A DNA stretch of 64,000 nt from contig OZ250169.1 in the NCBI GenBank assembly GCA_965237955.1, positions 576,001-640,000 of the forward strand. Direction: 5' to 3'. Source of the DNA: Candidatus Marinacidobacterales bacterium (GTDB taxonomy: Bacteria; Acidobacteriota; Vicinamibacteria; Marinacidobacterales; SMYC01). A program made the position numbers and the translations under genes. Of this stretch, positions 270-45,998 are shown piece after piece (positions within the stretch are counted from its first letter, which is position 1; the number at the start of each line of letters is the position of its first letter). Below the pieces are notes generated by a model. That model was not told the origin of the DNA, did no database searches, and saw only the letters and a list, made by a program, of their open reading frames with translations.

Positions 270-340
270 CCCGTCCTGTGCCAAAACTCGGCCCTTTTGA
301 AATAGACCATCAATCAGCAGCTTAGTGTCCGTGTTTGCGA
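270..340 (+). repeat. Terminal repeat type A, copy 1
   Basis: CCCGTCCTGTGCCAAAACTCGGCCCTTTTGAAATAGACCATCAATCAGCAGCTTAGTGTC. Confidence 0.95.
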
Positions 341-426
341 AAGGTGCAAACTGCTGACCCGCTGAGCGTTCGAGTATTTGGACCAGACGGGATTGAAACT
401 CTGCCCTTTTTTGGGACTTGCAATGT

Positions 427-756
427 CTAGCAATAAACCCCCGAGACGATCAGCAGCGGCGGGTTCTCCAGCGCCAGCGCGTACAGCCGGAGTTGACCGA
501 AGGCGGCGTCCAGATCGGCCCGCTTGCCCTTGTACTCCCAGGCGAAGTGATGGCGCTTCCAGACATCGGCCCAGCCGTCGCCGCCGGTGTCCTTGCGGGC
601 GCCCCGCTCGAAGCAGTACGTCTCGCCGCTCGGGTCGGCCTCGGCCGGCGTCGGTTCGTCGAGCAGCCGGCACAGGTCGATGAAGTGCTCCTGCGCCGCT
701 GAGCGCTCCTTGAGCGCCGAAGCACGCCACTTGTCGATGAACTCGTACGGCGTCAT
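427..756 (-). pseudogene. Truncated N-terminus of MmeI-like type IIL R-M enzyme (near-identical to the 17838 copy)
   Basis: MTPYEFIDKWRASALKERSAAQEHFIDLC...WEYKGK...ENPPLLIVS, then diverges. Confidence 0.85.
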
Positions 757-806
757 GGGCGTATTCAGCGTAGCCGATGACGCCGCGCCCCGCCACGCCT
801 CGCGGT

Positions 807-1757
807 CTAGCTGCTGATTCCTCCCCAGAACTCGCCTGACGATCCGCCGCTTCGAGATGCTCGGCGCCGCATTCCGGACGTGAGCAAGGCACGAAGGGCC
901 GAGTCATCGTCCTGGTGCCGCGCGATAACCGTACGGCGCGACGAGGCCGCCAACTGTAGGTTCAGTTGGGAGAGTCCGTGTTCGTCTATAGCGCGAACGT
1001 GGGGCACGACGTGCCGCGGCGTCTCAGCACCATCGGGTCCAGCTACGAAGCAGTAACCGGGAGTCATGGGGTACATGAGGCACCAGCCTCCTCCACCCGC
1101 GGAGGTGACCAGTACAGGTTCATCCGGCCGGACGAAGCCCGAATTGGACACCGTGCTCCACATTTCCCAGCGCCGGCTGAGGAGCCGTTGGTACATCTGC
1201 GCGAACACGGTGTTGTTCGAAAACAACGTTTCGTACACTCGTCGCAGACTCCCGACATCTGTCGGAAAATCGAGACCCTGTTCGGCAATAAACCTGCCCA
1301 CTCTCGGAAGAAGACGCAGGATGAAAGCAGGCGTGCGAATACACTGAGTGGCCAAGTACGCCACCCACTGTTTCGTCTCGTCCTCGTTTAGTGGAACCAT
1401 CTGCAGGAGCTTCTTGTAGGGTTTCCCGGCATCGCCCTCAACCAAGCTGAGCAGGTGTTCGAGCCCCTGCGAATACAGAAACGACTCCTGACCCCAACTC
1501 CGGGCTCGAACGTCTTTCCCGCGAACTATTCCATCGACACCAAGCTCGTAGACGCGCACCTTGTCCGCGGAAGCCCAGTACTTGTTGCTGAATGCGGAGC
1601 TGAAGTGCTGCCGCCGGCTGCCATCGTGCGCCGGTCGCCGAGAAATGCGCTTCGCGGACTTCGCAGAATCCGGCGGGATCATGGGGAAGCGGTTCCACCA
1701 CTGCTCGCACAGCGGTAGCCACACGTGGTCCGCCAGAATCGTAGCTGTGTTCTCGAT
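807..1757 (-). CDS. DUF4238-like protein; 5' end abuts repeat copy 2
   Basis: Motifs RRQHFSSAFSNKYW, YLATQCIRTP, FVRPDEPV, YPMTP resemble DUF4238; the predicted N-terminal extension is translated repeat. Confidence 0.6.
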   Translation of the reverse strand: MENTATILADHVWLPLCEQWWNRFPMIPPDSAKSAKRISRRPAHDGSRRQHFSSAFSNKYWASADKVRVYELGVDGIVRGKDVRARSWGQESFLYSQGLEHLLSLVEGDAGKPYKKLLQMVPLNEDETKQWVAYLATQCIRTPAFILRLLPRVGRFIAEQGLDFPTDVGSLRRVYETLFSNNTVFAQMYQRLLSRRWEMWSTVSNSGFVRPDEPVLVTSAGGGGWCLMYPMTPGYCFVAGPDGAETPRHVVPHVRAIDEHGLSQLNLQLAASSRRTVIARHQDDDSALRALLTSGMRRRASRSGGSSGEFWGGISS

Positions 1758-1818
1758 CCCGTCCTGTGCCAAAACTCGGCCCTTTTGAAATAGACCATAA
1801 ATCAGCAGTTTAGTGTCT
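1758..1818 (+). repeat. Terminal repeat type A, copy 2
   Basis: Same ~60-bp sequence as copy 1; the next ~25 bp are shared with copy 16. Confidence 0.95.
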
Positions 1819-2280
1819 CTACTAGCTGCGAGAGGAGATTCGGTCGTCTCGATTTCCTCCTCAGGTCCGTACCTAGTGGATACCAATCACGTTGGAAAAT
1901 GGCTCCAGTCGAACCGAGGTCGGTTGCGTGTCCTTCATCATTATTATAGTCGGAACCCTGGGCATCAGCGGAGGAACCGTCCGGCGCAGCGGGCTTCTGG
2001 TCAGACTCCATCATTGTCCTCCGCCGTGATTCGGCCACGGGCGCTCGGCGACAGGCGGGGCGGACACGGACTCTATGCAGTCGGACGTGGATACCCGAAC
2101 TCGTCTACTGGATGACTCGCCGCGAATAGCGCCTTCGGAATACTCCGCTGGCCTTCGGGAAGGTGCAAACTGCTGACCCGCTGGGCCTTCGAGTATTTTG
2201 ACCAGACGCGTTCAAGTTTTTGACACGACGGCATTTGCCCGAGGTGCTCTTCGCGGCATCCTCAACGGCCGGACACCCAT

Positions 2281-2314
2281 CCCGTCCTGTGCCAAAACTC
2301 GGCCCTTTTGAAAT
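2281..2314 (+). repeat. Terminal repeat type A, copy 3 (short, lacks IHF-like box)
   Basis: CCCGTCCTGTGCCAAAACTCGGCCCTTTTGAAAT. Confidence 0.9.
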
Positions 2315-3529: not shown

Positions 3530-3777
3530 AGGTACCAACGCAGAAGCGTAGCGGGTGTGGCAACGGACGCAATCTGGGCCAGCGCCTCGCGGCCCAAAGC
3601 CTGGGCCTTGACGGCGAGCCTGCGCCGCTCGTCGTCCGAGAGACTGAGACGCTTGCCCCGAAGCCCGGCTCGGAGCACACGGTTCTCCTCTTGCTGGTAG
3701 TCGATCACATCCTGCTGCTGGCGGTTGACCCAGCCAGCTAGAACGAGCAGTAGGAATTGCACGTGGTACGTCATCAT
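3530..3777 (-). pseudogene. rve-integrase-type transposase N-terminus linked to type A end
   Basis: LAGWVNRQQQDVIDY.QEENRVLR...RRRLAVKAQALGR...TPATLLRW; starts ~130 bp inside repeat copy 4. Confidence 0.75.
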
Positions 3778-3907
3778 GGGTCTGAAGATAACACCCTCGG
3801 GCTAGACGATTGTAAAGCGCACGGCCCTTGGCCCCGGCACAAACACAGACACTAAGCTGCTGATTTATGGCCTATTTCAAAAGGGCCCAGTTTTGGCACA
3901 GGACGGG
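3778..3907 (-). repeat. Terminal repeat type A, copy 4 (full leader up to transposase start)
   Basis: Reverse complement of type A, ending TTTTGGCACAGGACGGG. Confidence 0.95.
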
Positions 3908-4077
3908 AGGCAGAGCCAGCCCTGGACATAGTTGGTCGTCGCCATCGCTGGTTGGCTCCAGCGTGACCAACAGGCCGCTATCGTTTGTGTTTTTGGACAC
4001 GACGCGAGCACCTCCGCCTCAAGCTGCACCGGGGGACGTCGGATGTCCCGAATGTCCAAGAGCGGCAAGGGCCGACA

Positions 4078-4860
4078 TTAACGGACGGGAGGATCGCTAT
4101 TAAACTCCAGCACGAGATGAAATACCAGAACTTCAGACTTGCGTCCGTTGTGTGGTGAATATGGAACCCTGCAGAACAATGTCTCGTCTGGGGATGTATG
4201 TATCCGGTGCTTGAAGGTTGGAATAGGCGGAACCCTAGCAGAGAGCGCACTATCGATCTTGGTGAGCCAATACGAACGGTCACCACAAATCGTATATGCG
4301 ACCATTCCACCAACTTCATGATCGGTATAGGGCTCGTGGGGATCGGAGAATCGTTCTATTCCATCTTTCGAAAGGTACGAACGCGCGATATCGCTGGCCC
4401 TCACAAGACACTTAGCTTCGATGCGAAGGTCGAGGATTTCAGAGCCCAGCCTATACACACGGATGTCGGTTGGTTTGGCGTGCCTGCCGATGCCCTTCTT
4501 CCGGCGTCGCGGGGCTTCCAACGAAAATTGGAGCCCGTCGACATCAACAAGATCATCGTACGCTGGTTCAAGGTTCAGAATGATAGCTTCCCTGAGAGTC
4601 TCAATCACTTCGACGATGGCTTCAGAGACTGCGGTCTCTGATGGAATTCTTACATGGCCTCCCTTCTCCAAACGAGCTTTGACCGGACGCCACCAACCTT
4701 GAAGTGTCGTATAGCGAGATTGGCCTTCTGGGCTCCGAATGCGCTTTTCGGCTTCTTGGAACAGACGAATAACCTGATAAACAGTATGCTCCCACAACAG
4801 GTCCCGGGCCTGATTAGATACAGCATCGCTTCCAAGACTCGTCGGGGAGAACTTAGTCAT
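4078..4860 (-). CDS. Putative PD-(D/E)xK nuclease coupled to the methyltransferase
   Basis: ATG at 4860 overlaps the MTase stop (ATGACTAA); motif PTDIRV...IEAK, then YLSKDGIERF..GGMVAY. Confidence 0.65.
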   Translation of the reverse strand: MTKFSPTSLGSDAVSNQARDLLWEHTVYQVIRLFQEAEKRIRSPEGQSRYTTLQGWWRPVKARLEKGGHVRIPSETAVSEAIVEVIETLREAIILNLEPAYDDLVDVDGLQFSLEAPRRRKKGIGRHAKPTDIRVYRLGSEILDLRIEAKCLVRASDIARSYLSKDGIERFSDPHEPYTDHEVGGMVAYTICGDRSYWLTKIDSALSARVPPIPTFKHRIHTSPDETLFCRVPYSPHNGRKSEVLVFHLVLEFNSDPPVR

Positions 4861-7800
4861 ACGCATGCCGCGAACGAAGCACGTTCTCGGAGATTGCACG
4901 CGCATCTGCATATGCCTGCTCAATCGTCCAGGCCCCACGTGTCCATGGTTTTGAAACTTCCGCGCATGACAAGTAGGGGTCGTACACGATGTGTCCATGA
5001 GGACTGAATTCAGCGCGCGACGGCGCCTCATGGAAGACAGCGAGTGTTTCCTTATCGGGGATAGGACCAGCCATTGATTTTCTGACAATACGAATCGTGA
5101 TGTAGGCGAAGCCTTCGTGTTCAGCCGGATCTGAGAGGCTATATTCAATGTGGGCTTCGGGTCCAAACTGCTGCGACAGCTGCCTTATCAGCATGGAGCG
5201 ATAGTGGACAACGGAATCCGCATCCGGAGGCCTGAGGCTGTCATCTGGAATCTGCGCGTCTTCATATCCGTGTCTGAAGCTAGCGTATTCTTCCACCGCG
5301 CCTATGAAGGAATCGTCCAGACCCACCTTGTCGGTAAACAGCCTCGTCAAGTCGGTCTCGCTGAGAGCCTCAAGTCGATGAAGATCGGCATCACCGACCT
5401 CTTCAAAAGGGAAAGGAATGTTAATTAGGTCATTCTTCTCAAGTCGTGCTCTGTCGAGTAGTCGTGTTCTTCCGAACAAGGCGTAAAGATAGCGGGCGAC
5501 GTCAGAGTTGAGGAACCGGGCCACTCCCCGTAGTGCCGCGGCGCTCGGTTGTTTCGAAAGTGGGTGTTCCAGAAAATAGAGTGCATTGAAGCTAGAACCG
5601 AAAGCGATTGGTTGCTCTATAAACGTCACTTCATTCATGTGCCTTGGAATGAGGACTATGTTCCCGGAGAACATCTTCACGAAGGGTGCATTTGGGTAGT
5701 TGCGTGCTACCTGTTCGTGAGGATATGAACTAAACTGGAGCTCATCCAAATGGAGGCGCTCACGGTAATCCGTCGCGCTTAGTAAGAGCGCTCGCGGAAG
5801 TCCGGTTTGGTTCGGGCTTCCGCCGCGGGACACAGCCAAATGCGTTTTGGCGAGAAACGTACTAAACGTCGAATCATACTTCGACGCCCAGAGTGTCAGG
5901 TAATTGGCAAAGCGCCGGTCGATTGGCCGGAGCATCAAGGTCCAGAACCAAGAGGCGGCAGAGCGCGTTAGATCGCGCAGGCGATAGTGTTCGATGTCAG
6001 ACTCCGAGACAATGATGGACCATAGATGGCCGTGCTCTCCAATGGGTTGCGAGGTTAATAGCGGCGAATAGACCCAAACCGGATCCAGAACCTCGGGTTG
6101 TTTTGCTTGAGCGAAGATAGCGAGTGTCGGATTGCGGGCTCCCTTGAACAGTCGATATCGAAAATGAGACAGGTTGGCGAAGCCAACAAGCTTCGTCTGC
6201 TTGGCCAGCGCATTGGGAAACGCAATTGCTGTTCGTGCGACGAAACTGCGTGTCGAGACTAGAATCCCTAATACTCCGTTACGCGCTATAAGATCGCGTA
6301 GAATCTTCCAGACGAATAGCTCCGACAGCCGCTTGTTAGTGACTGGACACTTGGACGGATCAAGTTCGTCGAAGAACACGATGGCGGGTTCAAGACTTGC
6401 ATGGCGTTGCTCTATCTGCGATGCGACACGCTGCACATTCGTGCGATCGGACCTCCTCCCCATGCTACCCCAGGGCGGATTTCCGATGACGTGCGTGAAA
6501 CGGCCGACTTCATCTGCGCCATGCTTGTTGATAGTGAATACGTCCCGATTAAGAATATTCTCCGTGAGTGGTGGGAACACCCGTTCCCGCTTCATCAGTT
6601 TGCGCAAGGCATCAATCGCTGTGTTCTCAACGTAGTCGAGCAGTGTGAGATATAGGCTGAACCGCGTAACATTAGCTGCTTGCGGATTGCGCTCGATGCC
6701 GAAAATTGACTCTTCGAGTAAAGTCCTTGCTTTCTTGAAGTGCTCGGCTTTCCAACGGCTACGAGGCATCGTTCTTTCGAGAATTCGGCGATACGCGCCT
6801 ACGAGAAAGATGCCGGAGCCGGCCGCCGGATCGAGCGTTCGACTTGCTGCTGTAAAGGGTCGGATTCGATCGACTTCATCAAGAACGTAATCGACGAGGA
6901 ATGGCGGAGTGTAGAATGCTCCGTCGTCGTTCTTGTCGTTGGAGGATTCTAAGAGAAGGAAAAGCTCATAGATCGCAGAAAGTGTTTCGGTCCGAAGCGT
7001 TGCAAAAGAGACATCGAGAAATCCGAGCTGCCTTGTTCCTTGTCGAAGGAGATCGCCGTGGCGGATTGCGCGACGTACAAGATGTAGCGCTTGAGATGGT
7101 ATACGCTTCCGGTCAGCAGCGCTGATGGGAAAAATAGCACCGTTCATGATATCATCGATACGATCAAACAGTGCCCATACTTCGCTGGCTGGCCACGCCT
7201 GGTCGGCGATGTCGACGCGTCCGGCTTCGAGGAGAGATCGCGCAATATCTCCGCATAACGGCTTGGCGTTGCTGTCCTTAAGACTTGTGAGCCATGATGC
7301 GGTAACGATGCCCCGGTCGAGCAAGACGAAGAAATAGATGAAACGGCCGATGATAGAGTTGACCAAAAGAGCGCGCTGTTCCAGGTCGTGAAACTGCCCG
7401 CGCACCTCATTGTTGAGTTCTGTTATCGCGTCGAGAATGGCGCTATCGACACGACTACGCCGGTCGATAGCGTAGTCGTTCCAAACTACCGAACTCTTCA
7501 ACGACACAGCCGTTAGCGAGGTCAGCTCTGCAGGAATCGCCTGATCGTCGGCGAGTCTGTCCCAGGGGACGGATATCGGATGTGCACTTGGTGGTGTCAA
7601 GCTCTTGCGGATTTGTAGGGCGGTCGGGGTCGCTATCAGCAATATGGGGACAGTGCCCTGGCTCCAAACTAGCCGATGAAGCGAATCCGCCTCTTTCTCA
7701 TCGCGGCTGATCGCAAAATACAGAATGGGTGCGTACTTGTTGGGCTGGTCCAACCGGCTGGAAGGAAAGCCGAATACCGCATGGACATGTATAGTATTAA

Positions 7801-7954
7801 AAGCCTGCCGCACGACATGGCGGCTAGTGACGGCCTTGTAGTCAGCCCAGCGTCTGATCAATGCCGGGTTGTCGGCAAAACCGAGCCGACTCATCACCCG
7901 CTCGAGGCGAAGGGCGAGTTGGTCTGAATCTGTGATTAGCGGTTCTGTGGACAT
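4853..7954 (-). CDS. Large N6-adenine DNA methyltransferase (Eco57I/type IIG-like)
   Basis: GAFYTP, LDPAAGSGIFL (motif I), GNPPW (motif IV); 1033 aa. Confidence 0.9.
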   Translation of the reverse strand: MSTEPLITDSDQLALRLERVMSRLGFADNPALIRRWADYKAVTSRHVVRQAFNTIHVHAVFGFPSSRLDQPNKYAPILYFAISRDEKEADSLHRLVWSQGTVPILLIATPTALQIRKSLTPPSAHPISVPWDRLADDQAIPAELTSLTAVSLKSSVVWNDYAIDRRSRVDSAILDAITELNNEVRGQFHDLEQRALLVNSIIGRFIYFFVLLDRGIVTASWLTSLKDSNAKPLCGDIARSLLEAGRVDIADQAWPASEVWALFDRIDDIMNGAIFPISAADRKRIPSQALHLVRRAIRHGDLLRQGTRQLGFLDVSFATLRTETLSAIYELFLLLESSNDKNDDGAFYTPPFLVDYVLDEVDRIRPFTAASRTLDPAAGSGIFLVGAYRRILERTMPRSRWKAEHFKKARTLLEESIFGIERNPQAANVTRFSLYLTLLDYVENTAIDALRKLMKRERVFPPLTENILNRDVFTINKHGADEVGRFTHVIGNPPWGSMGRRSDRTNVQRVASQIEQRHASLEPAIVFFDELDPSKCPVTNKRLSELFVWKILRDLIARNGVLGILVSTRSFVARTAIAFPNALAKQTKLVGFANLSHFRYRLFKGARNPTLAIFAQAKQPEVLDPVWVYSPLLTSQPIGEHGHLWSIIVSESDIEHYRLRDLTRSAASWFWTLMLRPIDRRFANYLTLWASKYDSTFSTFLAKTHLAVSRGGSPNQTGLPRALLLSATDYRERLHLDELQFSSYPHEQVARNYPNAPFVKMFSGNIVLIPRHMNEVTFIEQPIAFGSSFNALYFLEHPLSKQPSAAALRGVARFLNSDVARYLYALFGRTRLLDRARLEKNDLINIPFPFEEVGDADLHRLEALSETDLTRLFTDKVGLDDSFIGAVEEYASFRHGYEDAQIPDDSLRPPDADSVVHYRSMLIRQLSQQFGPEAHIEYSLSDPAEHEGFAYITIRIVRKSMAGPIPDKETLAVFHEAPSRAEFSPHGHIVYDPYLSCAEVSKPWTRGAWTIEQAYADARAISENVLRSRHAYD

Positions 7955-8275
7955 CGGCGACTGTCTATGGGGTCATGTTCCTGGGTTCCCCTCCGTGCTG
8001 CCCAACGTACTCTCTTTCTGGGCGCAGGGGCACGGATTGACACTGGTGCGGGGGGGTCTCAACGCACAGGCCCGGTGCGCGCCGACGATGTGCGATGCGG
8101 GCCTGCCAAGCTGAGACATCTACTGAGCATGTTACACTCAACAGTGGCCGCAGTCTGCTGCAAAGCGGGACTGCGCGCTCAAGGGCCTCCCCTGAGGATC
8201 GACGTGTACCGGAAGAAGGCATCTTCCACACGGACCTGCCGATGGTACTCTGCGTCCTTCTTCCACCGTCGCCAC

Positions 8276-8380
8276 CCCGTCCTGTGCCAAAACTCGGCCC
8301 TTTTGAAATAGGCCATAAATCAGCAACTTAGTGTCTGTGTTTGCGACCGGGCCAAGGGCCGTGGGCTTTACAATCGTCTT
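8276..8380 (+). repeat. Terminal repeat type A, copy 5
   Basis: Type A plus leader GACCGGGCCAAGGGCCGTGGGCTTTACAATCGTCT. Confidence 0.95.
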
Positions 8381-8459
8381 GGGCGGGCGGGTCGTCACCA
8401 TGCAGATGACCTCCTAGTCGAGAGCGAATATCGAAGCGTCCAACGCCAGCTGTGTGACC

Positions 8460-8699
8460 TCAAGTGGCCGCCTTCCGTTCCAGTGGATTTTGTGCGCGAC
8501 TCCTGACCGTCGGTGACGTGTGTCGACTCGTGCGGGTGAAAGGATGTTCTAGGCGGTAGCCGGCACCTATGTCAATTCCGGCTTCGTTTAGGCGATCCAG
8601 TATTCCGAAAAGCTGCTCGATGCGCTGTCGCTGTGGCTTTGGCACTGAATCGACCAGTACTTGATAGTCTTTTTCTCGGTCACCCGGCTCCGAGCTCAT
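8460..8699 (-). CDS. Small hypothetical protein coupled to the protease
   Basis: ATGA overlap with the stop of 8696-9616. Confidence 0.65.
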   Translation of the reverse strand: MSSEPGDREKDYQVLVDSVPKPQRQRIEQLFGILDRLNEAGIDIGAGYRLEHPFTRTSRHTSPTVRSRAQNPLERKAAT

Positions 8700-9616
8700 A
8701 AGTACTCCCTTGTGTGCATGACCATGAACTCTCCGCCATAGTTCTTGTAGACGTAGTCAGAGAGCAACGAGAAGTACGACAGAAGTTTCTCACTGAGTTC
8801 CTTATTCTGATCGAAGTCATCGATTCGAAGCTTCAAGACATCCCGTACCGTCCCCATTGAGATGCCCCGCCCGTGCGAGTGCCACATCTCATTGTTGCTC
8901 AAAACGTTAGCTATTTCTTCGGCCCTTTGCTTCTTCATCTCCTCGGTTACTTTTATCCCGCAGGTCTCCGTCTTCTCCCAGTCCTTAAATTTGTAGGTAG
9001 TCAGCCACTTCTTTAGAAGTGTAACCGCGAGATTTCGGGCCTGTTCGTACTGGTGTAGCTCGGCAAGGTCGAGCTTCATCAGGAGGCCAAGTTCTGCGTC
9101 CGTAAGCTCGCCGTTCTTTGACTTTTCGATGAAACGATCAAACTGTGCGAGATAGGATACGGCAGGGACCAACTTGTCGTCGCGGACTATCTGCGGGTCA
9201 ATCGGGCCGAGTCGCGAGAAATAGTTCATATGAATTGCGTCTCCAGACATGACGAAGATCGTCCCAGCGGAGAAAGCTACATCGGGGACGTAGAATTCGA
9301 CCTCCTCGTACTTGTGCCGAAGAACATCGACCATCCGCTCGACTATTTCGACAACACCCCCGCCAGTCTGTAGGACGACAGCAATCCTTCGCCTCCGTCC
9401 TTGCTCCGGAATCGAACCGATAGCGTCGCGCAGGTTGTGTTCGGCCCCGGCTCGAATTGGACCGATGGCTGCAACCACGTCCGAGTAGAGCAGCTCCTCT
9501 AACTCACCGATGCTCTTCTGGAGTTGTCGCTGCGCGACCACGGTCACACTCTCTCGTTCCTGCATTGCCTTCGGGCTGTTACGCGAACCCAACCTTGAAT
9601 TCAATGATGGCAGCAC
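8696..9616 (-). CDS. ClpP-class serine protease (SDH_sah-like); true start possibly ~9565
   Basis: LQTGGG, VPDVAFSAGT, LGPIDPQ, WHSHGRGI motifs. Confidence 0.85.
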   Translation of the reverse strand: MLPSLNSRLGSRNSPKAMQERESVTVVAQRQLQKSIGELEELLYSDVVAAIGPIRAGAEHNLRDAIGSIPEQGRRRRIAVVLQTGGGVVEIVERMVDVLRHKYEEVEFYVPDVAFSAGTIFVMSGDAIHMNYFSRLGPIDPQIVRDDKLVPAVSYLAQFDRFIEKSKNGELTDAELGLLMKLDLAELHQYEQARNLAVTLLKKWLTTYKFKDWEKTETCGIKVTEEMKKQRAEEIANVLSNNEMWHSHGRGISMGTVRDVLKLRIDDFDQNKELSEKLLSYFSLLSDYVYKNYGGEFMVMHTREYL

Positions 9617-9674
9617 TGAAGGTGGCTACGCAACTGCTTGCTTGGCGCTTGAATGTGGTGCTTCCGCAATCAAG

Positions 9675-10468
9675 TGATGGAATGGACTCCTCCGCTGACA
9701 TAGACGGCATCGATGTGCCAAAGTCAGTCGAATACGCATCGAAAAGGAGGAGTCCGAATGAAAGATACGACGATCGCTGTGGATCTTGCAAAGAACATCT
9801 TCGAGATTGCCATCTCGGGAGAAGCGGGGAAGGTGTCCAAGCGACTCCGTGTGAGTCGACCCAAATTGGTGTCGTTCTTTGCCAAACAGAGCGCTGCCAC
9901 CGTGCTTCTCGAAGCCTGCGGCTCGGCTCACTTCTGGGCAAGGACGTTGCGACGGTTGGGACACGACGTCGTCCTGCTCCCACCTCACCTCGTGAGGCCG
10001 TATCGACGCGGGAGCAAGAACGACCGCGCCGACACGAAGGCGTTGCTCGAGGCCTACAGGAACGAGGAGCTTCTTCCCGTACCCATCAAGTCCGTGCACC
10101 AGCACAGCCTCGCCGCGCTCCATCGCCTGCGCTCAGGATGGCTCTCCACACGGACCGCACGCATCAATGCCGTACGCGGGATCCTGCGCGAACTCGGATT
10201 CATCATCCCAAAGGGCGCTCACTTCGTCGTGCCCGCCCTCTTCGAACTCGTCGAAGACACTGATTCTGATTTGCCCGACGTGCTCCGTTCGCATCTCCGT
10301 GATGCCTGCTCCGAGATTCGAGACCTCAAGGACAAGTGCGCTGGCATCGAGCACGAGTTCAAGGCGCTCACCAAGCAGCTTCCTGAAGTCCAACGACTTC
10401 TCGCCATTCCCGGCATCGGACTTCTGACCGCGACCGCCATCGTGGGCTTCGTCGGCGATCTTCGCCGC
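9675..10468 (+). mobile_element. Truncated IS1111-group IS110 element (transposase from 9758), copy of 54242-55667
   Basis: IAVDLAKN, LLEACG, KNDRAD (DEDD); same left end TGATGGAATGGACTCCTCC; lacks C-terminus and non-coding region. Confidence 0.9.
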
Positions 10469-10469
10469 T

Positions 10470-10698
10470 TGGGCGTGGGCGCTCTTTCTTCAGCGCCCTC
10501 ACTTGCTGCCGCAAAGCGACGTTCTCCAACACTAGGTCGGCGCGGTGCCGACACATCGCCCGAATGGCACGGACGCCAAGTGAGACGAGGAAGACAACAA
10601 CGTCGAGCATAGCGGCCGAGTTTCGCCGTCTTCGGCCCGGAATTCAAGCGGAGCGTAAGTCCTTGATTTCGTGGGCGGAGCAGTTTTGACGATGCACA
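10470..10698 (-). mobile_element. Left end and N-terminus of a second rve-integrase-type element
   Basis: Terminus TGTGCATCGTCAAAA; peptide DLVLENVALRQQVRALKKERPRP. Confidence 0.65.
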
Positions 10699-10784
10699 AG
10701 GTTGATCGCCAGCGCGCCGTCTTATATCGTCTCCGTCTCGAATCTTAGAGTGGCACTACATACGAAGCCGAAAGGAGACCACCA

Positions 10785-12488
10785 TTGGGCAGGTTCAAGC
10801 GCGCCGAGCCGATTCTGGTCGCGGCGGAACACTGGAAGCGCCGATGCCTCCTCGGTGAGCGATCCTTGTTCACCGACCGATCTCTCTGGACTCGCTCAAA
10901 CTTCCAAGAGCTACAGGAAGTGTACGTGGAGAAACTCGACGATCAGTCTTCGGACTCGTTCCTAGTAAAGTTGAAGCGCCAGCTTGAGCCCAGTTCGCCG
11001 GACGCCAAGTGCCTATGGGCCGAACTGACTTGGGTGTATCGCTTGATCCAGAACCGACAGTCCATGAGACCCGCAAACAAGCGAGCGCGGATCGTCGAGA
11101 TATGGAAGTGGTCGAGGCGAGACTTCCCTGAAGACCATGAGCTCCTGAACGACGCAGTGCTCGGAGCGGGAGTCGTCACCCCGGGCACCGCGTACAACAC
11201 GCTTGCCTGGAAGGAATTTCGCTTCTTCGTGGTCGCCATGCTGGACTGGTCTTCGCTGGAGGTAAACGAGCGCAAATCCCTCCTCGATCGCGCATGGGAC
11301 TTCGCGTCATGGCTGGACGCCACCAAGTTTGCCGAGAATCGCATGTTCCGACATGCGCTCCTGTTCCTGCTCTTCCCTGACGAATTCGAATCGATAGTCT
11401 CCAACCAGGTGAAGAGACAGATCTTCAACCGACTGCATCAAGGCGACCGTCCTGACACCTCCAACGCAGTCGAGCTCGACCGAGCCCTGTTCGCAATCCG
11501 TCGCCGCCTCGAGAACGAGTATCCCGGTGAGGTTCACTTCTACCGGCCCCCGATCAAGGAACTCTGGCAGTCAGGACCGGCACCTCCCGATCCATCAGAT
11601 GACGAAGAGGACCCGAGCGGAACATACAGCCCCGGCGACGCCCACCAAGACCTCTTCATTCCCCCCGACCACTTCAAGCGCCTCCTCACCTCCATCAAGT
11701 TCCGCAAGAACCTCATCCTCCAAGGCCCGCCCGGCACCGGAAAGACCTTCATCGCCCGCCGAATCGCCTGGTGCCTCATCGGCCGCAAGGACTCGGATCC
11801 CATTGAGATGGTCCAGTTCCACCAGTCCTACGCCTACGAAGACTTCGTTCAGGGCTATAGACCCACCGACGAGGGCGGATTCAACCTCAGGGACGGGGTC
11901 TTCCACCGCTTCTGCGAACGCGCGCGGGCCAACCTGAAGACGCCCTACGTCTTCATCATCGACGAGATCAACCGCGGCAACCTCTCCCGGATCTTCGGGG
12001 ACCTACTCATGCTGATCGAGGCCGACAAGCGCGGCGAGGACTACGCCGTCGCGCTGACCTATTCCGACAAACGGTTCCATGTCCCGGCGAACGTCCACAT
12101 CCTCGGCATGATGAACACCGCCGACCGATCGCTCGCCCTGGTCGACTACGCGCTCCGCCGACGATTCGCCTTCGAGACCCTCGAACCGGCCTATGGGAAG
12201 TCGGAGTTCGAAGAGTACCTGAAGCAACGGGGCGCCGATCCACACTTGGTCGCCCGCATCTCCGAGCGAATGGGCACCCTCAACAAGACGATCATAGGCG
12301 ACAAGGAACTCGGTCGCAGCTTCCAGATCGGTCACAGCTACTTCGTTCCCGGCAAAGGTGACGAGCCTTCGGAAGCCTGGTACAAGGACATCGTGGACAC
12401 CCAGATCGCGCCGCTCCTCCGCGCGTACTGGTCCGACTCGCCGCACGACATCGAGAAGGAAGTGGCAAGACTCACCGCCGACGCCTGA
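10785..12488 (+). CDS. mcrB: McrB-family AAA+ GTPase (type IV restriction)
   Basis: GPPGTGKT, QFHQSYAYEDFVQG, IIDEINRGN, MNTADRS, RRRF. Confidence 0.93.
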   Translation: MGRFKRAEPILVAAEHWKRRCLLGERSLFTDRSLWTRSNFQELQEVYVEKLDDQSSDSFLVKLKRQLEPSSPDAKCLWAELTWVYRLIQNRQSMRPANKRARIVEIWKWSRRDFPEDHELLNDAVLGAGVVTPGTAYNTLAWKEFRFFVVAMLDWSSLEVNERKSLLDRAWDFASWLDATKFAENRMFRHALLFLLFPDEFESIVSNQVKRQIFNRLHQGDRPDTSNAVELDRALFAIRRRLENEYPGEVHFYRPPIKELWQSGPAPPDPSDDEEDPSGTYSPGDAHQDLFIPPDHFKRLLTSIKFRKNLILQGPPGTGKTFIARRIAWCLIGRKDSDPIEMVQFHQSYAYEDFVQGYRPTDEGGFNLRDGVFHRFCERARANLKTPYVFIIDEINRGNLSRIFGDLLMLIEADKRGEDYAVALTYSDKRFHVPANVHILGMMNTADRSLALVDYALRRRFAFETLEPAYGKSEFEEYLKQRGADPHLVARISERMGTLNKTIIGDKELGRSFQIGHSYFVPGKGDEPSEAWYKDIVDTQIAPLLRAYWSDSPHDIEKEVARLTADA

Positions 12489-12491
12489 CCG

Positions 12492-13777: not shown

Positions 13778-13790
13778 CGGAATCGCAACT

Positions 13791-32754: not shown

Positions 32755-32755
32755 C

Positions 32756-34417
32756 ATGAAGAAAATCCGCTGTGCCATCTATACGCGAAAGAGCGCGGAA
32801 GAGGGTCTCGAGCAGGATTTCAACTCCCTCGATGCGCAGCGAGAAGCCTGCGCCGCGTATGTCGCGAGCCAGAAAACGGAGGGCTGGGTGCTGCTGCCAA
32901 CCGTCTACGAGGACGCGGGGATCTCGGGAGGAACCCTGGAGCGCCCGGGCCTCCAGCGCTTGCTCGCCGACATCGATGCCGGTCTCGTCGACCATATTGT
33001 GGTCTACAAGGTCGACCGGCTGACCCGTTCCCTCTCCGACTTTGCAAAGCTCGTCGAGCGGCTCGAGGCGGCCGGCGCGGTTTTCGTCTCGGTGACTCAG
33101 TCCTTCAACACCGCGACCAGCATGGGACGACTGACGCTGCATATGCTGCTGTCCTTCGCACAATTCGAACGCGAGGTCACGGCCGAGCGGATCCGCGATA
33201 AGGTCGCTGCCTCCAAGCGCAAGGGACTATGGATGGGCGGCCGCGTACCGCTAGGCTATGAGAAGGACGGGCGCACGCTGCGCATCAACGAGGCTGAGGC
33301 CGAAACGGTCCGGACGCTCTATGCGCTGTACCGAAAGCACGAAACGCTCCGGCAGGTGAAGGCCGAGGCGGACCGTCTGAGACTGCGTACCAAGCAACGC
33401 TTCGCCGCGGATGGAACCCGAACGGGCGGGCTGCCGTTCCGTCGCGGACACCTTCACTGCCTGCTGACCAATCCTCTCTACGCCGGCCGCATCCGGCACC
33501 AGAGGCGTGTCTACGAGGGCCAGCATCCATCGATCATTGCTCCGGAGCTCTGGGACGCGGTCCAGGCGCAGCTGCAGGCAGGGGCTGCCAAACCAAGGAG
33601 ACGCACGACGAAGGGCCGCGCAGCCCCCTCCCCACTGGCAGGCAAGCTCTTCGACGAGACCGGGGACCGGCTGACGCCGAGCCACACCAAAAAGAAAAAC
33701 GGGCAACGGCTCCGCTACTACGTCTCCCGGCGCCTCATCCAGCACAGTGGCCAAAAGGACCTCTCCGGCTGGCGGCTGCCCGCCCTGATGCTGGAACAGA
33801 CCGTCTTGCATCTCATCCGACAGCATGTGGATGCTACGACCTTCTCGGCCTCGTTGATCCACACTCCGACGATGCAAGAGCTCGCCTCGGTGCGTCGCTT
33901 TTTAGACGGGCTGTGTTCCGATACTAATAATGATAGTGCCTCGGCAGCCCCCCTGCTCCGTCTTATCCGGCGGGTCGACATCAGCCCCGGCTCTGTGTCC
34001 ATCCTGCTCGACCGCAATGCGTTCGCTGCTTGCCTCTCTATGGGGCCCGAGCGCATTCGCGAGGATGCACTCTGCATCCACGCACCGTTCCGCTTGCGTC
34101 GACGCGGCGTCGAGACCAAGCTCGTTCTGGGCAACCCCACGAAATCCGTCGACCGCACACTCCTGCGCAATATCAGAAACGCCCTCTCCTGGCTCGACCG
34201 AATCAAAGCAGGCAAAACCTATGAGCAGATTGCCACCGAAAACGCCATCCCAACGGACCGCGTGCGCAAGGCAATCCGTTATGCCTTCCTGGCTCCCGAC
34301 ATCGTCCGCGCCATTGTCGAAGGCCGCCAGCCCGTTGGGCTGACCTCGAGCTACCTCTTGCATCATCCGCTTCCCGACGATTGGGAGAAACAGCGAGTGC
34401 TCGTCAAAACGCTGTGA
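32756..34417 (+). CDS. Large serine recombinase (resolvase + recombinase domains)
   Basis: CAIYTRKS, SLDAQRE, ISGGTLERPGL, KVDRLTRS, FEREVTAERIRD, LTNPLYAG. Confidence 0.93.
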   Translation: MKKIRCAIYTRKSAEEGLEQDFNSLDAQREACAAYVASQKTEGWVLLPTVYEDAGISGGTLERPGLQRLLADIDAGLVDHIVVYKVDRLTRSLSDFAKLVERLEAAGAVFVSVTQSFNTATSMGRLTLHMLLSFAQFEREVTAERIRDKVAASKRKGLWMGGRVPLGYEKDGRTLRINEAEAETVRTLYALYRKHETLRQVKAEADRLRLRTKQRFAADGTRTGGLPFRRGHLHCLLTNPLYAGRIRHQRRVYEGQHPSIIAPELWDAVQAQLQAGAAKPRRRTTKGRAAPSPLAGKLFDETGDRLTPSHTKKKNGQRLRYYVSRRLIQHSGQKDLSGWRLPALMLEQTVLHLIRQHVDATTFSASLIHTPTMQELASVRRFLDGLCSDTNNDSASAAPLLRLIRRVDISPGSVSILLDRNAFAACLSMGPERIREDALCIHAPFRLRRRGVETKLVLGNPTKSVDRTLLRNIRNALSWLDRIKAGKTYEQIATENAIPTDRVRKAIRYAFLAPDIVRAIVEGRQPVGLTSSYLLHHPLPDDWEKQRVLVKTL

Positions 34418-35515
34418 GCCTGCCAGCGCCCACTCCGTGAATGGGCTCGGTTAGCAGCAAGCTGCTCTCCGACACTGGCCTCTACCAATCAGCCTCAAAC
34501 TGGCCCAAATTCCCTGTCATGGTTTCCAGACTCGGATAGCTCCTTGTACTGGACCGTCTGCGGAGTCATCTTCGTTTCCTCCGTAAAACTCCGCTGGATG
34601 AATTCGAGGTTTGGCCAATTCGAATTCCGCCATTCGCCTTCTCCTCAGGCGCGATCTAGGCGTTAAGCGTCTTCTCATTGTCTGCACGATTAAGCGCAAA
34701 AACGTCCCGATAAGCCCCAAAATCGCCCCAAATTGCACGCTAAGGGCCTGTTTTGCTCTCTTTCTGATCGTTTTCAGCCTAGAACCAGAAGCTCCAGTCG
34801 CCCCCACTCGAGCCTCCCGACTGCGATAGCCGGAAAGATGTTCCCGTCGACGAATATTCGCTGATGAGACGTAAAGCTTTTTATAACAATGAGTAACGGC
34901 CGGCGGTGGCGCCGGAGGGTTCACGACACGACCTTCTTTCAGGCGTCCAGGAAGTTGAAATTGCCGTATAGAAAAGATGATTAAAGCCAATTAAAATTCC
35001 GGCTCGAACGACCACCCGTCGATGATGCGTGCAGGGACCAGCACGTGACGGAGGCCGTTAAATCACTGTAGGGGAAGAGGATGGAACGAAATGGGCATCA
35101 TGGTTGAAACCCGAGAGGGCGTAAAACAGCCTTCTCCCAAAACCTGTGTACGCGTCAGAAAAGTCAATAAATGCGCGAAACTCGAAACCTCCTAAATCTC
35201 CACTTATTTTTCTCTTTGAGGATTTCCGCCAAAAGCTGGACCGCCTTTTGCCGAGACCGGCTAGCTCCAAACTGCACCATCCGCCACCCAGTCTGGCCAA
35301 TTGTGGCACTGCAGAGACGGGTGAGATTTTCCGCGCGGTTGGCGGGGTTTTGCAGGGGTAGGTGTCACCAGAGACGCGCTAGAAGGGCTGAACGGGCCTC
35401 ATTTTCGGTTTTCGTCTCTAATCTCGATGTTCGAGTGCCACGTTCGCGCCAAAGGGGGGAAAATACTCGAACACCCAGCGGGTCAGCAGTTTGCACCTTT
35501 CCAAAGGCCGCCTAC

Positions 35516-35600
35516 CGCCCTTGGCCCGGTCGCAAACACAGACACTACGCTGCTGATTTATGGTCTATTTCAAAAGGGCCGAGTTTTGGCACAGGACGCG
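35516..35600 (-). repeat. Terminal repeat type A, copy 14
   Basis: Reverse complement type A; the only copy whose flank is not GG. Confidence 0.93.
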
Positions 35601-43421: not shown

Positions 43422-43550
43422 TGCACTGGAGGCCCATTTTCTTGATTTCAAACTGCGACACTACCCAAGAACCACGAGGCCCTCCGTGTCAACATCCCTG
43501 AGACACTCCGCCTGTGCCTTCTATTTATTCATCCGCGCGCACCGAACTTG

Positions 43551-43606
43551 CTAAGCTGCTGATTTATGGTCTATTTCGAAAGATCCGAGTTTTGGCACAG
43601 GACGGG
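43551..43606 (-). repeat. Terminal repeat type A, copy 15
   Basis: CTAAGCTGCTGATTTATGGTCTATTTCGAAAGATCCGAGTTTTGGCACAGGACGGG. Confidence 0.93.
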
Positions 43607-43847
43607 ATCTCCACCGAGGCGAAGACCAGTTCGCAGGACCTCCCACTCATGGCTGTCTGCCCGTCGATACACGATCTTCTTTTTTGCGGATCACAGCCGA
43701 TCTCGTTGGATGGCCCGTTGCTGGACACCTCGGTCCTGACAGGCGAGGCAGTAGCGACGCCAAATCAGGACATTAAAAAAAGCGACCTGCTTTTTTGCCT
43801 AGCCGCCCTGTTCTGCTACTCTTCTCAATCACTCGGTAGGACTCTCA

Positions 43848-45971
43848 ATGAACAACGCTGACGACAGACCCACAGTTGGTCGGGATTGGATCGCCTTCGT
43901 TGTCGCGTGGATCCCCTACTCGTTGTTGACCTATAGATTCTGGCACAACGTCGACGACGCCTTCATCAGTTTCCGTTACGCAAAGAACTGGGCGATGGGG
44001 TACGGACCTCGTTACAACCTAGGGCTGCAGCAACAGGAAGAGGGATACAGCAACTTCCTGTGGGTAGTCGTTTGTACGTTTATCGAGTACCTGGAACTCG
44101 ACATTACTTTCTGGGCACCGATGCTCGGTTTCGTCTGTGGTTCTTTGCTCTTGTACCTTGTTTTTCGAACGCTCCGGCGAGATTTCGACATGGGGCTTGG
44201 TGTAGCTTTCTCCATAACGCTGGGCCTGGGCCTTTTCCCACCTTACGCTTTGTGGTCGACGGGTGGTCTGGGCACCATGGCGTTCGCCCTTTCCATCTTT
44301 GCGACGGCCTACTTTCTTGTTCTGCGTCCGGCTGGCATCGCGCCTTACCGCGGTGCGCTCGCCGGCGTAGCCACGACATTGTTGCGTACCGAAGGCATTG
44401 CCTGGTCTTTGCTCATTGCCCTGCTGGGCATCATCACCCGACGGCTGAGAGGGGAAGCTGTCTGGCGACCGGTGGCCGTCTATGTCGCAACCGTGGGCAC
44501 TGCTTTTTTAGTCTATTTTGCATGGCGATACTCCTATTACCAGCTCCTTTTTCCCAATCCGGTCTACGCCAAGGTTGGTTTCAGTCCCGAGGTCGCACTG
44601 CGAGGCTTCCGATACGTGGCTGCCTTCGTTCTCACATTTGTGACACCGCTTCTATTGTTGCCGGCGGCTGGCTACGTGGCTTGGCGGGAAGCACCGAAGC
44701 CGGTAGGGCTTGTCCTCGGAACCTTGAGCCTGGCATTTCCCGCCTACGCTGTGATGGTCGGCGGGGATTGGATGGCTATGGGACGGTTTCTAGTTCCCGG
44801 TTTCGCCTTCGGAGCACTCTTGATGGGATGGTTGGTGGCTCGGTTGTGGGAACGCCTGTCATCGCGCCTTGTGGTCATGGCGGTAGTGATAACGACGATC
44901 ACGGTGGGTCTCCTTCCTGCGTGGAACGTGCATCTCGTACCCGACTCGGTGCGTCGCCTCTTTCATTTTCGTTACCTCAGTCCCTTCCGCACTGAGTATG
45001 AGAAGTGGAGAGTAGAGCCCAACTTTTTCACGGACAGAAAGGAAGAGGCTCTGGCACTGAAGGCGCATTTCACCCCAGGAGATAGCATCGTTCTTGGCAA
45101 GATCGGGCTACTCGGATATTACTCCGACCTACACATCTACGACCGCAGTGGCCTAGTCGACCGGCGCGTCGCGATGCGCCCCCGCACGCGCAATCCGCTC
45201 CGCATGCCGGGGCATGATAGCAAGGTCTCTACCGATTTCTTTTTCGCGGACGAGCCTACCGTCGTGCTTCACGAAAGGCTAGACGGACCTCCACCTAGCC
45301 GAAAGAATCCCGAATACCCGTTGCTTCGGCGTATCAGAATGAAAGCCGAGTCCTGGAGGAAATTGTCGGTCTGGCGACGTTACGTGCCGGAGGTTCTGCC
45401 ACTGGAACCGTCGCAGCAAGGTAGCCCTAACGTGCTCATAGTCCTGCGGTTGATCGAGGAAACGCCCCGTATCGCCACACTTTCCAGTCCACAGCGGCGT
45501 GCCGAAAGAGCCTGGGATGACTTTTTTAGGGAGTTGGATTCTGCTCTACCCTTTGTTGTACTGGCCTACACCAGCGGCTGGTACCCGAAGGAAACAGCTC
45601 CGGAATCGACGGGACGATGGACCCATCAGACCGCCACGCTGTCGTTTTTTAACCCGCAGGCAGACGCGACGTTCTCCCTCGACTACGCCGCACGCGCGCC
45701 GCAGACGGTCACGGTCAGCGTCGGCGACCAACTGCTGCAGTCATTCGTCGCCGATGCATCCGGGCGCCGCCGCCGCCGCCGTATTCCCCTCCCCGCAACG
45801 GCGCTAGGAAATGGGGACAGGGCTAAGATCCAGATCACTGTGGATCGGACGTTCGTGCCGGCGAATCTGATCGCGGGCTCACGCGACACCCGCGAACTTG
45901 GCATTAAGGTCTATCACGCGGCCGTTGAACGCGACCCCGTCCTGTGCCAAAACTCGGCCCTTTTGAAATAG
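43848..45971 (+). CDS. Polytopic GT-C-like glycosyltransferase (AftB-like); last residues supplied by repeat copy 16
   Basis: VDDAFISFRYAKN, EGYSNFLW, RTEG, PNPVYAK, GGDWM; many TM segments. Confidence 0.75.
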   Translation: MNNADDRPTVGRDWIAFVVAWIPYSLLTYRFWHNVDDAFISFRYAKNWAMGYGPRYNLGLQQQEEGYSNFLWVVVCTFIEYLELDITFWAPMLGFVCGSLLLYLVFRTLRRDFDMGLGVAFSITLGLGLFPPYALWSTGGLGTMAFALSIFATAYFLVLRPAGIAPYRGALAGVATTLLRTEGIAWSLLIALLGIITRRLRGEAVWRPVAVYVATVGTAFLVYFAWRYSYYQLLFPNPVYAKVGFSPEVALRGFRYVAAFVLTFVTPLLLLPAAGYVAWREAPKPVGLVLGTLSLAFPAYAVMVGGDWMAMGRFLVPGFAFGALLMGWLVARLWERLSSRLVVMAVVITTITVGLLPAWNVHLVPDSVRRLFHFRYLSPFRTEYEKWRVEPNFFTDRKEEALALKAHFTPGDSIVLGKIGLLGYYSDLHIYDRSGLVDRRVAMRPRTRNPLRMPGHDSKVSTDFFFADEPTVVLHERLDGPPPSRKNPEYPLLRRIRMKAESWRKLSVWRRYVPEVLPLEPSQQGSPNVLIVLRLIEETPRIATLSSPQRRAERAWDDFFRELDSALPFVVLAYTSGWYPKETAPESTGRWTHQTATLSFFNPQADATFSLDYAARAPQTVTVSVGDQLLQSFVADASGRRRRRRIPLPATALGNGDRAKIQITVDRTFVPANLIAGSRDTRELGIKVYHAAVERDPVLCQNSALLK

Positions 45972-45998
45972 ACCATTAATCAGCAGCTTAGTGTCTGT
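45936..45998 (+). repeat. Terminal repeat type A, copy 16
   Basis: Same ~60-bp sequence as copy 1. Confidence 0.95.

Follow-up and report, generated by a model that had tools for sequence, protein, structure and literature searches.

Here we report an analysis of a 64-kb stretch of the source genome (G000), hereafter the window, in which gene blocks lie between copies of a short repeat. All 16 copies named in the original prediction were recovered, 15 exact and one (25046-25062) with one mismatch, against a chance expectation of 0.02. They occur in both orientations, and their division into 14 type A and two type B copies (15559 and 25062) was reproduced. The position first given for the copy at 35598 was exact, and the other 15 tips lie 2 bases inside the positions given, because two target-derived bases had been counted with the repeat. 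The features of the window are as follows (IS, insertion sequence; IR, inverted repeat).

272..389: 118-bp mini-unit, type A tip (272, +) joined to a sister type D tip (389, -)
272: this A tip cuts an IS3-type transposase gene (label inferred from the Pfam match of copy 21491-22381); 21 copies have the uncut allele
1760..2230: A tip with 59 bp of IR (1760, +), facing inward to sister tips 2208 and 2230 (-)
2283..2314, +: A tip with 32 bp of IR
3490-3771, 24911-25048 and 27545-27787: 5' fragments of the transposase gene (tblastn)
3531..3905, -: IS left-end remnant of 375 bp with the first ~90 transposase codons
4004, -: type C tip of a sister family; the first cargo block has its true inner limit here
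4005..8277, -: cargo present once, flanked by facing tips; encodes a type IIG restriction-methyltransferase (4853-7954, PADLOC)
8278..8439, +: IS right-end remnant, 162 bp of the right arm
8278..15559: 7.3-kb stretch with outward tips; SDH protease, IS110 fragment, McrBC-like pair, Schlafen/AlbA gene
15543..15559, -: type B tip; a LysR gene (15540-16490) reads in and stops there
21449..21503, -: A tip with 55 bp of IR
22411..22527, -: left-end remnant of 117 bp
22528..24773, +: cargo present once, flanked by facing tips; genes for a type II REase (22575-23228) and an MTase (23232-24719), both by PADLOC
24774..25062: 289-bp deletion derivative in which a left-end remnant abuts a type B tip
25063..27477, +: cargo; genes for an NYN_YacP protein and an M20 peptidase
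27478..27921: 444-bp derivative, non-autonomous, its two tips facing outward
27922..32118: cargo; unassigned ORF stopping inside the IR, IS256-family insertion, SPFH gene
32119..35598, +: 3.5-kb passenger unit with outward tips; DUF2924 gene and large serine recombinase gene
35749-35883: transposase fragment of a sister element (tblastn)
36019, -: sister type C tip
43551..43604, -: A tip with 54 bp of IR
43605..45937, +: cargo; gene for a 707-aa membrane protein, reading into the tip and stopping in the IR
45938..46045, +: A tip with 61 bp of IR, then a sister C-like tip at 46025

The six sister-family tips (389, 2208, 2230, 4004, 36019 and 46025) and the identity of 8278 as a right end had been overlooked in the original prediction. 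Most of the labels first given to the cargo have Pfam or PADLOC matches (methyltransferase/nuclease, restriction-modification (R-M), NYN, M20 and SPFH); the UDG-like label has none in either, and the GT-C label for the 707-aa protein corresponds to GT-C-like neighbours found by language-model features only. This protein is 81-94% alike in relatives, and a tip-free allele is present in G033 and G018. The spacing claimed for the R-M block (45 and about 50 bp) measured 47 bp from tip to ATG and 54 bp from stop to tip; the last 43 bp of the block are a scrap of another gene, whose tip-free continuation is found in four relatives and also outside this block in G000. No close copy of the R-M block was found in 55 genomes, and an amidase block sought in five relatives was matched at 72% at best. 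Cargo genes also include sulfatase, amidase, TolC-type, VPS10 and lgt genes, a wider range than the defence and envelope genes first proposed. Only 5' fragments of the cognate transposase gene lie within the window, as had been stated, and no IntI tyrosine recombinase was found by Pfam among 41 window proteins, the longer of its 245 ORFs.

The intact element and its transposase

That the repeats are IS ends is borne out by an intact copy outside the window (G000:448590-450017), 1,428 bp in length, with a ~100-bp type A inverted repeat at both ends and one ORF for a DDE-type transposase of 354 aa. The transposase is encoded outside the window, as predicted: counting the query copy, the source genome has 28 tblastn matches of at least 250 aa at 90% or more. 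The narrower idea of orphan left ends fell with the same element, since a type A repeat at both ends rules out a left-end-only model; of the 501 tips of the main element in the source genome, 102 extend into the left arm and 65 into the right, and the other 334 are broken off within the shared repeat. Type B tips number eight.

Profile searches identified rve_3 and HTH domains in the transposase, residues D175, D241 and E276 are invariant across 31 aligned sequences, and the modelled core matches HIV-1 integrase (Z 14.6, rmsd 3.3, 148 aligned) as well as IstA and TnsB. The nearest family profile is that of IS481 (NF033577; 101.8 bits, cut-off 224), and the IS3 profile (NF033516) scored 83.5 bits against a cut-off of 160. 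Transposases of IS3 are encoded by two ORFs fused by frameshift. No match was obtained to the IS6 profile, to the DEDD (IS110-type) domain or, with the single sequence, in the PDB, where the transposase profile reached Sleeping Beauty at E 0.006. Both scores are below cut-off. We treat the IS as unclassified. The protein family is large, with E 1e-20 or better for 7,933 of 8,000 scored candidates. Tips start with CGT in G000 and at 13 distant loci, and those of Streptomyces relatives with TGT, TGC, GGT or CGC. A reading of the ends as longer or inverted, with the tip at TGT, was rejected, CGTCC being absent from uncut alleles; no hairpin above background was found at the tip site in four folds (z 0.08-0.77), and a search with a degenerate pattern for the element end gave 0 matches.

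Tip islands and one-sided target sites

Including sister elements the source genome carries ~790 tips, and the islands that hold them make up 19% of the genome. Clustering in islands, a point raised with the original prediction, is evident from the occupation of 31 of 82 100-kb bins, where uniform placement gave a minimum of 80. Half of the island DNA consists of repeats, which adjoin 315 of 679 island tips; neighbouring tips alternate in orientation in 55-57% of pairs within 3-30 kb, and a gene is cut by 36 of 134 tips with unique flanks (27%), so that the term integron-like cassette array overstated the order of these regions. There was no outward-promoter bias at the tips (44 gene starts and 39 stops face them) and no replichore bias (386 vs 403). 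Nine relatives from two families have 31-526 tips each, and the transposase core is present in all nine, with a partial match in one of 31 other genomes.

The closest facing type A tips in G000 are 25 bp apart, and no abutted circle junction with a 2-3 bp spacer was found there; unitigs from four runs, which drop rare forms, contained one 6-bp spacer at depth 3.6 and one longer. That the lone ends are misassemblies of a repeat-rich metagenome is favoured by the 6.2% contamination of G000 and by the failure of any examined unitig to bridge a window junction. However, nine other assemblies also show the tip excess, identical junctions recur across genera, and short-read unitig depth at the tip is about tenfold that of the transposase core in three runs, which makes misassembly scarcely credible.

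The sequence joined to a tip is the left half alone of a polar site, GAY-S-N|N-GT, which resembles the element's own junction. Of the 501 tips, 498 have C or G at position -2, and in 312 uncut targets, mostly from other multicopy ISs, N1 is C or G in 300 and N3 in 160 (P 2e-41); this polarity argues against symmetric two-ended insertion, which should not produce it. No clean insertion was seen among the 44 two-ended units that were informative, some of them copies with 0-3 differences, or among 215 units with both flanks seen elsewhere; one of 61 units (4676452-4677890), without an uncut allele and outside the 44, is a size coincidence rather than a member of the family. In line with what the original prediction requires, no target duplications (TSDs) were found at source-genome junctions, and of 27 full elements in relatives, 22 lack even a single duplicated base. 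The partner halves of 248 tips showed no constant offset, with five candidates at offset -1 that are compatible with rare insertion at a 1-bp stagger.

These observations bear on normal two-ended insertion (copy-in or copy-out, with 0-1 bp of duplication), after which frequent adjacent deletion and inter-copy recombination would have replaced nearly all flanks, much as in IS-rich islands elsewhere. Missing TSDs often arise by adjacent deletion and IS-IS recombination, as described in PMC11708052, the target is quasi-palindromic (GAC-NNN-GTC) in a way that fits a 1-bp stagger, a 1-bp match occurs in 5 of 13 low-copy distant loci, and the repeat content of the islands fits as well, as does the absence of scars if the circles from deletions are lost. 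We nevertheless consider this explanation unlikely, although it deserves serious attention. Partner junctions should then often show A or T at -2, yet 3 of 501 do, and even near-identical copies among the 44 units are not clean. The 1-bp match rate is that of chance (16 of 61 units, ~16 expected), and deletion alone gives no dispersed tip-bounded duplicates. Three Streptomyces copies, the three loci in that comparison, also show one half only; L118 and L122 stood outside it, and L119 had no informative flank. The same flank motif recurs in MAGs of Myxococcota, Gammaproteobacteria, Phycisphaerae and others. A Pfam search meant for split genes, covering 48 of 64 frames flanking 12 distant elements, found no family on both sides.

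Filled and uncut alleles, compared at 321 of 332 sites after 11 with more than 3 mismatches were dropped, disagree at -1 in 28 cases and at -2 in 18, against about 4 at -5 to -8. Donor-derived coupling bases at -1/-2 were mostly dismissed, as the weak excess could also come from mosaic alleles, and dinucleotide memory was unconvincing (P 0.05-0.35).

It is also conceivable that the large serine recombinase, a passenger of one multicopy unit, uses the tips as att-like sites: 76 tips continue into this DUF2924-recombinase unit at its inner end, 32 of the 38 matches to a 100-bp probe for it lie in islands, and related tips weakly tend to share a non-CC dinucleotide (P 0.05-0.08, three of four lengths). 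We regard this as very improbable, since in several phyla the DDE gene lies between these same ends and flank motifs, the filled allele mostly agrees with the uncut one at -1 and -2, there is no excess of reciprocal scars and the dyad centre is 3 bp.

Cassette exchange and a proposed one-ended reaction

The original prediction on cargo is supported in that tip-bounded cargo is copied, trimmed and exchanged between genera. At 46 junctions a low-copy duplication ends exactly at a tip while its partner copy runs on (~3 expected, 670 boundaries). A 1.77-kb lgt cassette stands against the same tip in nine copies from five genera, nearly unchanged between them, with a right junction identical in 9/9 copies and further trimming in one; genes are shared between families at 99% identity. 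The uncut partner has no side or orientation bias (26, 37, 29 and 24 of 116), so a simple tandem-duplication route is not supported. Reciprocal tip-free scars are not enriched among 1,453 breakpoints away from tips, which themselves reflect much other deletion activity; a conservative exchange keeping both products is thus not supported either. Replacement of a nearby target segment was discarded, the few kb-scale co-occurrences being mostly chance pairs of multicopy ISs.

Cassettes might instead be moved by the host, through recombination or microhomology joining in the 20-100 bp of shared repeat, the transposase making the junctions and the tips acting as passive homology. The host encodes RuvC and Ku, many breakpoints lie away from tips, copies with a common flank diverge at varied points inside the repeat, and shared interiors of 20-65 bp, which host recombination could equally give, occur in 38 of 63 flank groups. 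Yet the shared stretch is 30 bp or less in 14 of the 63 groups, tips of different sister families, with few bases in common, sit at the same base of four flanks, and the 46 duplications that stop at a tip have partner copies lacking the repeat; we judge passive homology improbable.

The reading that we prefer, with a probability of roughly 0.55, is that the transposase handles its ends singly, attaching a tip to a look-alike of the element's own junction, a reaction predicted from its end products to be single-end strand transfer akin to IS26 targeted exchange. The roughly 500 tips would then carve up a fifth of the chromosome probably because the enzyme joins single ends to look-alike sites. 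The enzyme would nick one tip and transfer that strand into a look-alike site, and replication or junction resolution would fix the new flank|tip joint alone. A site outside the tip would yield an adjacent deletion (trimming), and a site on another molecule or at an existing tip junction would yield flank exchange; a pair of such events could relocate a two-ended unit or enclose a segment between tips that face each other. Element interiors would erode through other deletions as tips beside useful genes persist. Existing junctions would be good targets and events in core genes costly, which would confine the process to islands. The scheme does not readily account for a two-ended unit acquiring two new flanks while avoiding a lethal intermediate. 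More tentatively, and at less than even odds, this would be a large DDE family, found from marine Acidobacteriota to Streptomyces, without a clean insertion route, acting as a one-ended, loosely site-specific recombinase that targets copies of its own junction; in these marine bacteria it would build cassette fields of megabase size, where genes are captured, trimmed and traded across genera, as an integron equivalent built from IS tips.

Known systems and significance

In ISEcp1/IS1380 and ISCR/IS91, one true end suffices for capture of neighbouring genes, and the captured DNA lies inside the moved unit. In contrast, captured DNA is here often outside the tip, the enzyme families differ and there is no 5-bp TSD; unlike IS91/ISCR, the transposase has a DDE profile and fold rather than HUH (Y2), with inverted repeats at both ends. 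Integron arrays employ attC single-strand hairpin sites in direct orientation and the tyrosine recombinase IntI. The likeness to these arrays and to pdif modules, described in bioRxiv 2022.12.17.520857, is one of outcome, namely short gene blocks between repeated sites, common to several lineages, whereas here the site has no hairpin and occurs in both orientations, many genes are cut, and the enzyme is of DDE rather than tyrosine type.

Targeted conservative exchange, translocatable units and pseudo-compound arrays are described for IS26/IS6 (PMC7885326; PMC7986276), and the likeness extends to a DDE enzyme, a proposed single-end transfer at an existing IS end with exchange of flanks, a targeted route without new TSDs and cargo arrays between IS copies. 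IS26 is also described as having copy-in with an 8-bp TSD and as needing extended identity at the reacting end, whereas here the sites are plain ~9-bp look-alikes, no TSD route is seen, orientation is near-random, most ends are 20-100 bp remnants and the IS6 profile is not matched. The products seen here look compatible with an exchange at like ends that, as in IS26, depends on the transposase and not on RecA. IR targeting by IS30 and IS911 shares one-ended transfer beside an IS end, host processing and occasional sequence conversion at the junction; the same account (PMC9333248) describes abutted IR-IR junctions with a 2-bp spacer alongside TSD-making insertion, whereas facing A tips in G000 are at least 25 bp apart and attack replaces a tip of the same orientation. 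In Pseudomonas fluorescens SBW25 a TSD-less IS481 copy lies at a duplication junction and is linked to rearrangement (PMC11708052), and our element resembles IS481 in nearest profile, a single ORF with HTH and rve domains, a YGT-like tip, the DDE triad and an integrase-type core. However, that account gives 4-bp TSDs for the four resident SBW25 copies, none of which has a counterpart here, and IS481 ends begin 5'-TGT (bioRxiv 2022.12.17.520857) rather than CGT; the profile score is below cut-off and a short direct target repeat is absent.

Our literature search found no description of such an element or process. The absence of target duplications is commonly put down to later damage; in this case an entire IS family leaves only half-targets at a polar site mimicking its own junction, in hosts as far removed as Streptomyces. 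Should one-ended joining be the usual mode of this family, the targeted route of IS26 would extend to plain 9-bp sites, a compact 354-aa enzyme would be available for studying single-end transfer free of a competing insertion route, and a fifth of these chromosomes could be explained as a shared pool of defence, envelope and hydrolase genes. Given the size of the protein family, such behaviour may be common and overlooked. As a minor observation, the 444-bp derivative of the window also occurs in the relative G008, in two copies at 100% and 98%.

An insertion sequence whose two ends share a repeat, and its islands

The original prediction was sound in its description of the repeats: both strands of the window carry the 17-mer, with 16 copies in all (chance expectation 0.02); these divide into 14 of type A and two of type B, and only 5′ fragments of a cognate transposase lie among them. 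The source contig is single (8.13 Mb, 60% GC), and six tips of sister elements accompany the 16 copies. Intact elements are present elsewhere in the source genome (G000) as 1,428-bp copies with a single ORF of 354 aa. Genome-wide we found 501 tips (sites matching the 17-mer with at most one mismatch); 26 plus/minus pairs are spaced 1,400–1,500 bp apart, with a stop-free frame of at least 360 codons in 20. Type A had been taken for the left end of the element, which it is not, because both element ends begin with one ∼100-bp repeat: the left arm follows 102 tips and the right arm 65, while the other 334 break off within the shared repeat, most often near 31–35 bp and 54 bp. Full-length copies account for 46 of the 501, and the total including sister elements with related tips is 789.

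The transposase has rve_3 and HTH domains and scores below the profile cut-offs of both IS481 (101.8 bits against 224) and IS3 (83.5 against 160). All 31 sequences compared keep residues D175, D241 and E276, and the core of a structure model (mean pLDDT 69.5) matches integrase-type cores, namely those of HIV-1 integrase (148 aligned residues at rmsd 3.3, Z 14.6), IstA (Z 13.3) and TnsB (Z 12.7). Judged by their flanks, two-ended units (stretches between outward-pointing tips) do multiply: distinct flanks number 48 of 50 for 25 full ISs, 29 of 30 for 15 copies of a 317-bp unit and 18 of 18 for nine copies of a 129-bp unit. Within the first 54 bp from the tip every reading frame of the type A repeat meets a stop codon (for example window 272–325); 41 called genes in G000 run into a tip and end there, and three of these lie in the window. 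Gene starts show no excess over stops beside tips in G000; at one element locus (L001) an outward-facing −35-like hexamer, TTGGCA, lies 7 bases inside the tip.

The tips are clustered rather than evenly spread, falling in 31 of 82 100-kb bins where uniform placement gave at least 80. Sixteen islands, delimited by the tips themselves, cover 1.57 Mb (19% of the genome) and contain 487 of the 501; as an outside comparison, they hold 43 of 46 copies of the cognate transposase core and 4 of 62 ISL3 copies. Among 40 relatives screened, nine from two families carry 31–526 tips, five carry one or two and 26 none; the core is present in all nine tip-rich genomes, with one partial match in the other 31. 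No unitig bridging a window junction was found. Misassembly is nonetheless a very improbable source of the lone ends, because relatives carry the tips and the unitig depth of the tip is ∼10x that of the core in three independent runs. One 20.8-kb island duplication (G000:136621–157372 and 495924–516686, 98.7%) has ends that are not at tips.

Target site and route of movement

Uncut alleles, in which the target runs on without a tip, gave from 312 examples the near-palindromic consensus (G/C)-A-(C/T)-S-N|N-G-T, similar to the junction GACCC|CGTC of the element itself; of the 501 tips, 498 have C or G at position −2. This near-palindrome is used in a polar fashion: N1 is C or G in 300 of 312 uncut targets, whereas its dyad partner N3 is so in 160. 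A two-ended insertion would join tips to both target halves, which would even N1 and N3. Normal insertion, with relentless deletion of adjacent DNA afterwards, is an unlikely account. Clean insertions numbered 0 of 44 informative two-ended units, including pairs 0–3 differences apart, and 0 of 215 units with both flanks found elsewhere. Of 61 units, 16 show a 1-bp match, about the 16 expected from flank composition, and 22 of 27 full elements in relatives have no duplicated base. The other target half showed no constant offset when 248 tips that have an uncut allele were compared; five candidate partner halves at offset −1 lie mostly between different sister families.

The reading we favour, at a probability of roughly 0.55, is that one tip's strand is transferred into a site resembling the element's own junction. 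The joint would be fixed by replication or host resolution (the host has RuvC) and the other product lost; a target outside the tip would trim the flank, and one on another molecule or at an existing junction would exchange flanks. Four flanks bear tips of different families at the identical base, and in 38 of 63 groups with a common flank the copies diverge no more than 65 bp from the tip. Against single-end transfer stand the lack of any side bias of the uncut partner and of tip-free reciprocal scars, which scored 0–0.6% per offset of 1,453 non-tip breakpoints (background 0.5%), compared with 19.5% of 174 tip breakpoints at offset 0. Signs of junction conversion or memory are also weak, and single-end transfer does not explain how a two-ended unit could safely acquire two flanks. 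Passive host recombination at the repeats is an improbable explanation. Repeated sequence makes up half of island DNA, and 315 of 679 island tips adjoin repeats. No hairpin formed at the tip site. Facing tips 24–27 bp apart (G000:326432/326457, 7838746/7838772 and 7854559/7854587) are extreme trimming products, and no shorter spacer occurs among G000 type A tips.

Cargo and the cassette model

Low-copy duplications have 670 boundaries, at which 46 distinct junctions fall exactly at a tip while the other copy continues (∼3 expected). Twelve of these partner copies lie more than 10 kb from any tip of type A or of the sister families C, D and E, including a sulfatase gene with a tip at either side, a TolC-type gene with its twin next to truA, and a VPS10 gene; identities are 95–98%, so some may derive from related strains. 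One partner terminates at a further sister tip. A 1.77-kb block of lgt and a chalcone-isomerase-like gene has nine copies (one partial, 98.7–99.8% identity) in G000 and four relatives (G008, G018, G021 and G033), spanning five genera and two families. Its right junction is common to all nine, with differing interiors beyond; on the left, four copies share one tip, two have a tip-free allele, and in G008 the tip lies 102 bp further in, close to the gene end. The tip-free allele of window tip 45938 continues CGTCCC in G033 and G018, and an unrelated gene is the source of the 43 bp that immediately precede tip 24774, so trimming includes other deletions too. One passenger unit is fused to a tip:

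Window 32119–35598: DUF2924 gene and large serine recombinase gene, multicopy (dozens).

A further example lies at G000:235253–237858, and one copy of this unit has its recombinase split into two ORFs. That a serine recombinase is responsible for the junctions is very unlikely.

The integron-like cassette array that had been proposed is an overstatement: tip-bounded blocks are duplicated and exchanged, but orientation is near-random, alternating in 55–57% of neighbouring tips within 3–30 kb, and genes are cut. By a hexamer model built for this analysis, a gene is interrupted at 36 of the 134 tips whose flanks are unique, compared with 374 of 600 look-alike sites; this bias away from genes is real, and selection alone can produce it. 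For the R-M block of the window, 55 genomes yielded no close copy.

Elsewhere in the window, two truncated type IIG (MmeI-like) R-M gene pieces (314–907 and 17805–19199) are 92% alike over 336 bp, and two Schlafen/AlbA_2 genes (13791–14957 and 19717–21396) adjoin McrBC-like and type IIG genes. Beyond the last tip, on its right side, other ISs are stacked across 46000–57464 (IS21-like, IS110 and an unassigned 560-aa ORF); that ORF (49758–51440) has 18 copies and no Pfam match. An IS256-family element (29793–31158) is 96–98% identical in five relatives from two families, a spread that points to a shared mobile pool beyond the tip-bearing IS.

Known systems and family range

In membership tests the element fell outside IS6, IS3, IS481, IS91, IS110 and integrons, and features of ISEcp1, ISCR and attC entered the comparison. 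It is most like the targeted conservative route of IS26, for which single-end transfer and Holliday junction processing are proposed (PMC7885326; PMC7986276). Its action also resembles IS30 IR-targeting (PMC9333248), and PMC11708052 reports an IS481 that moved without TSD at the junction of a duplication. The element may be a variant of IS-end-mediated gene capture, apparently undescribed in the literature searched: full-text searches gave no description of these ends, their target polarity or the islands. ISfinder, TnCentral and most subscription journals lie outside that scope, so the family may already have a name.

Relatives at 54–86% identity occur in MAGs of Myxococcota, Gemmatimonadota, Gammaproteobacteria, Phycisphaerae and Bryobacterales, with CGT-type ends and the flank bias of G000. 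Two clear ends were present at 13 of 21 distant loci examined, with a 1-bp match at five of the 13; in one deltaproteobacterial MAG there are 42 tips, several without a partner. That the family's transposase is obligately one-ended is rather less likely than not. Streptomyces plasmid copies at 34–37% identity retain the flank motif; an informative flank was present at three of four loci searched, and all three elements adjoin half of a gene or IS whose other half is missing at the far side. In Streptomyces cathayae (locus L119:5748–7217) a relative has a CBASS-like neighbourhood, adjoining one SAVED-domain and one JAB/Mov34 gene.
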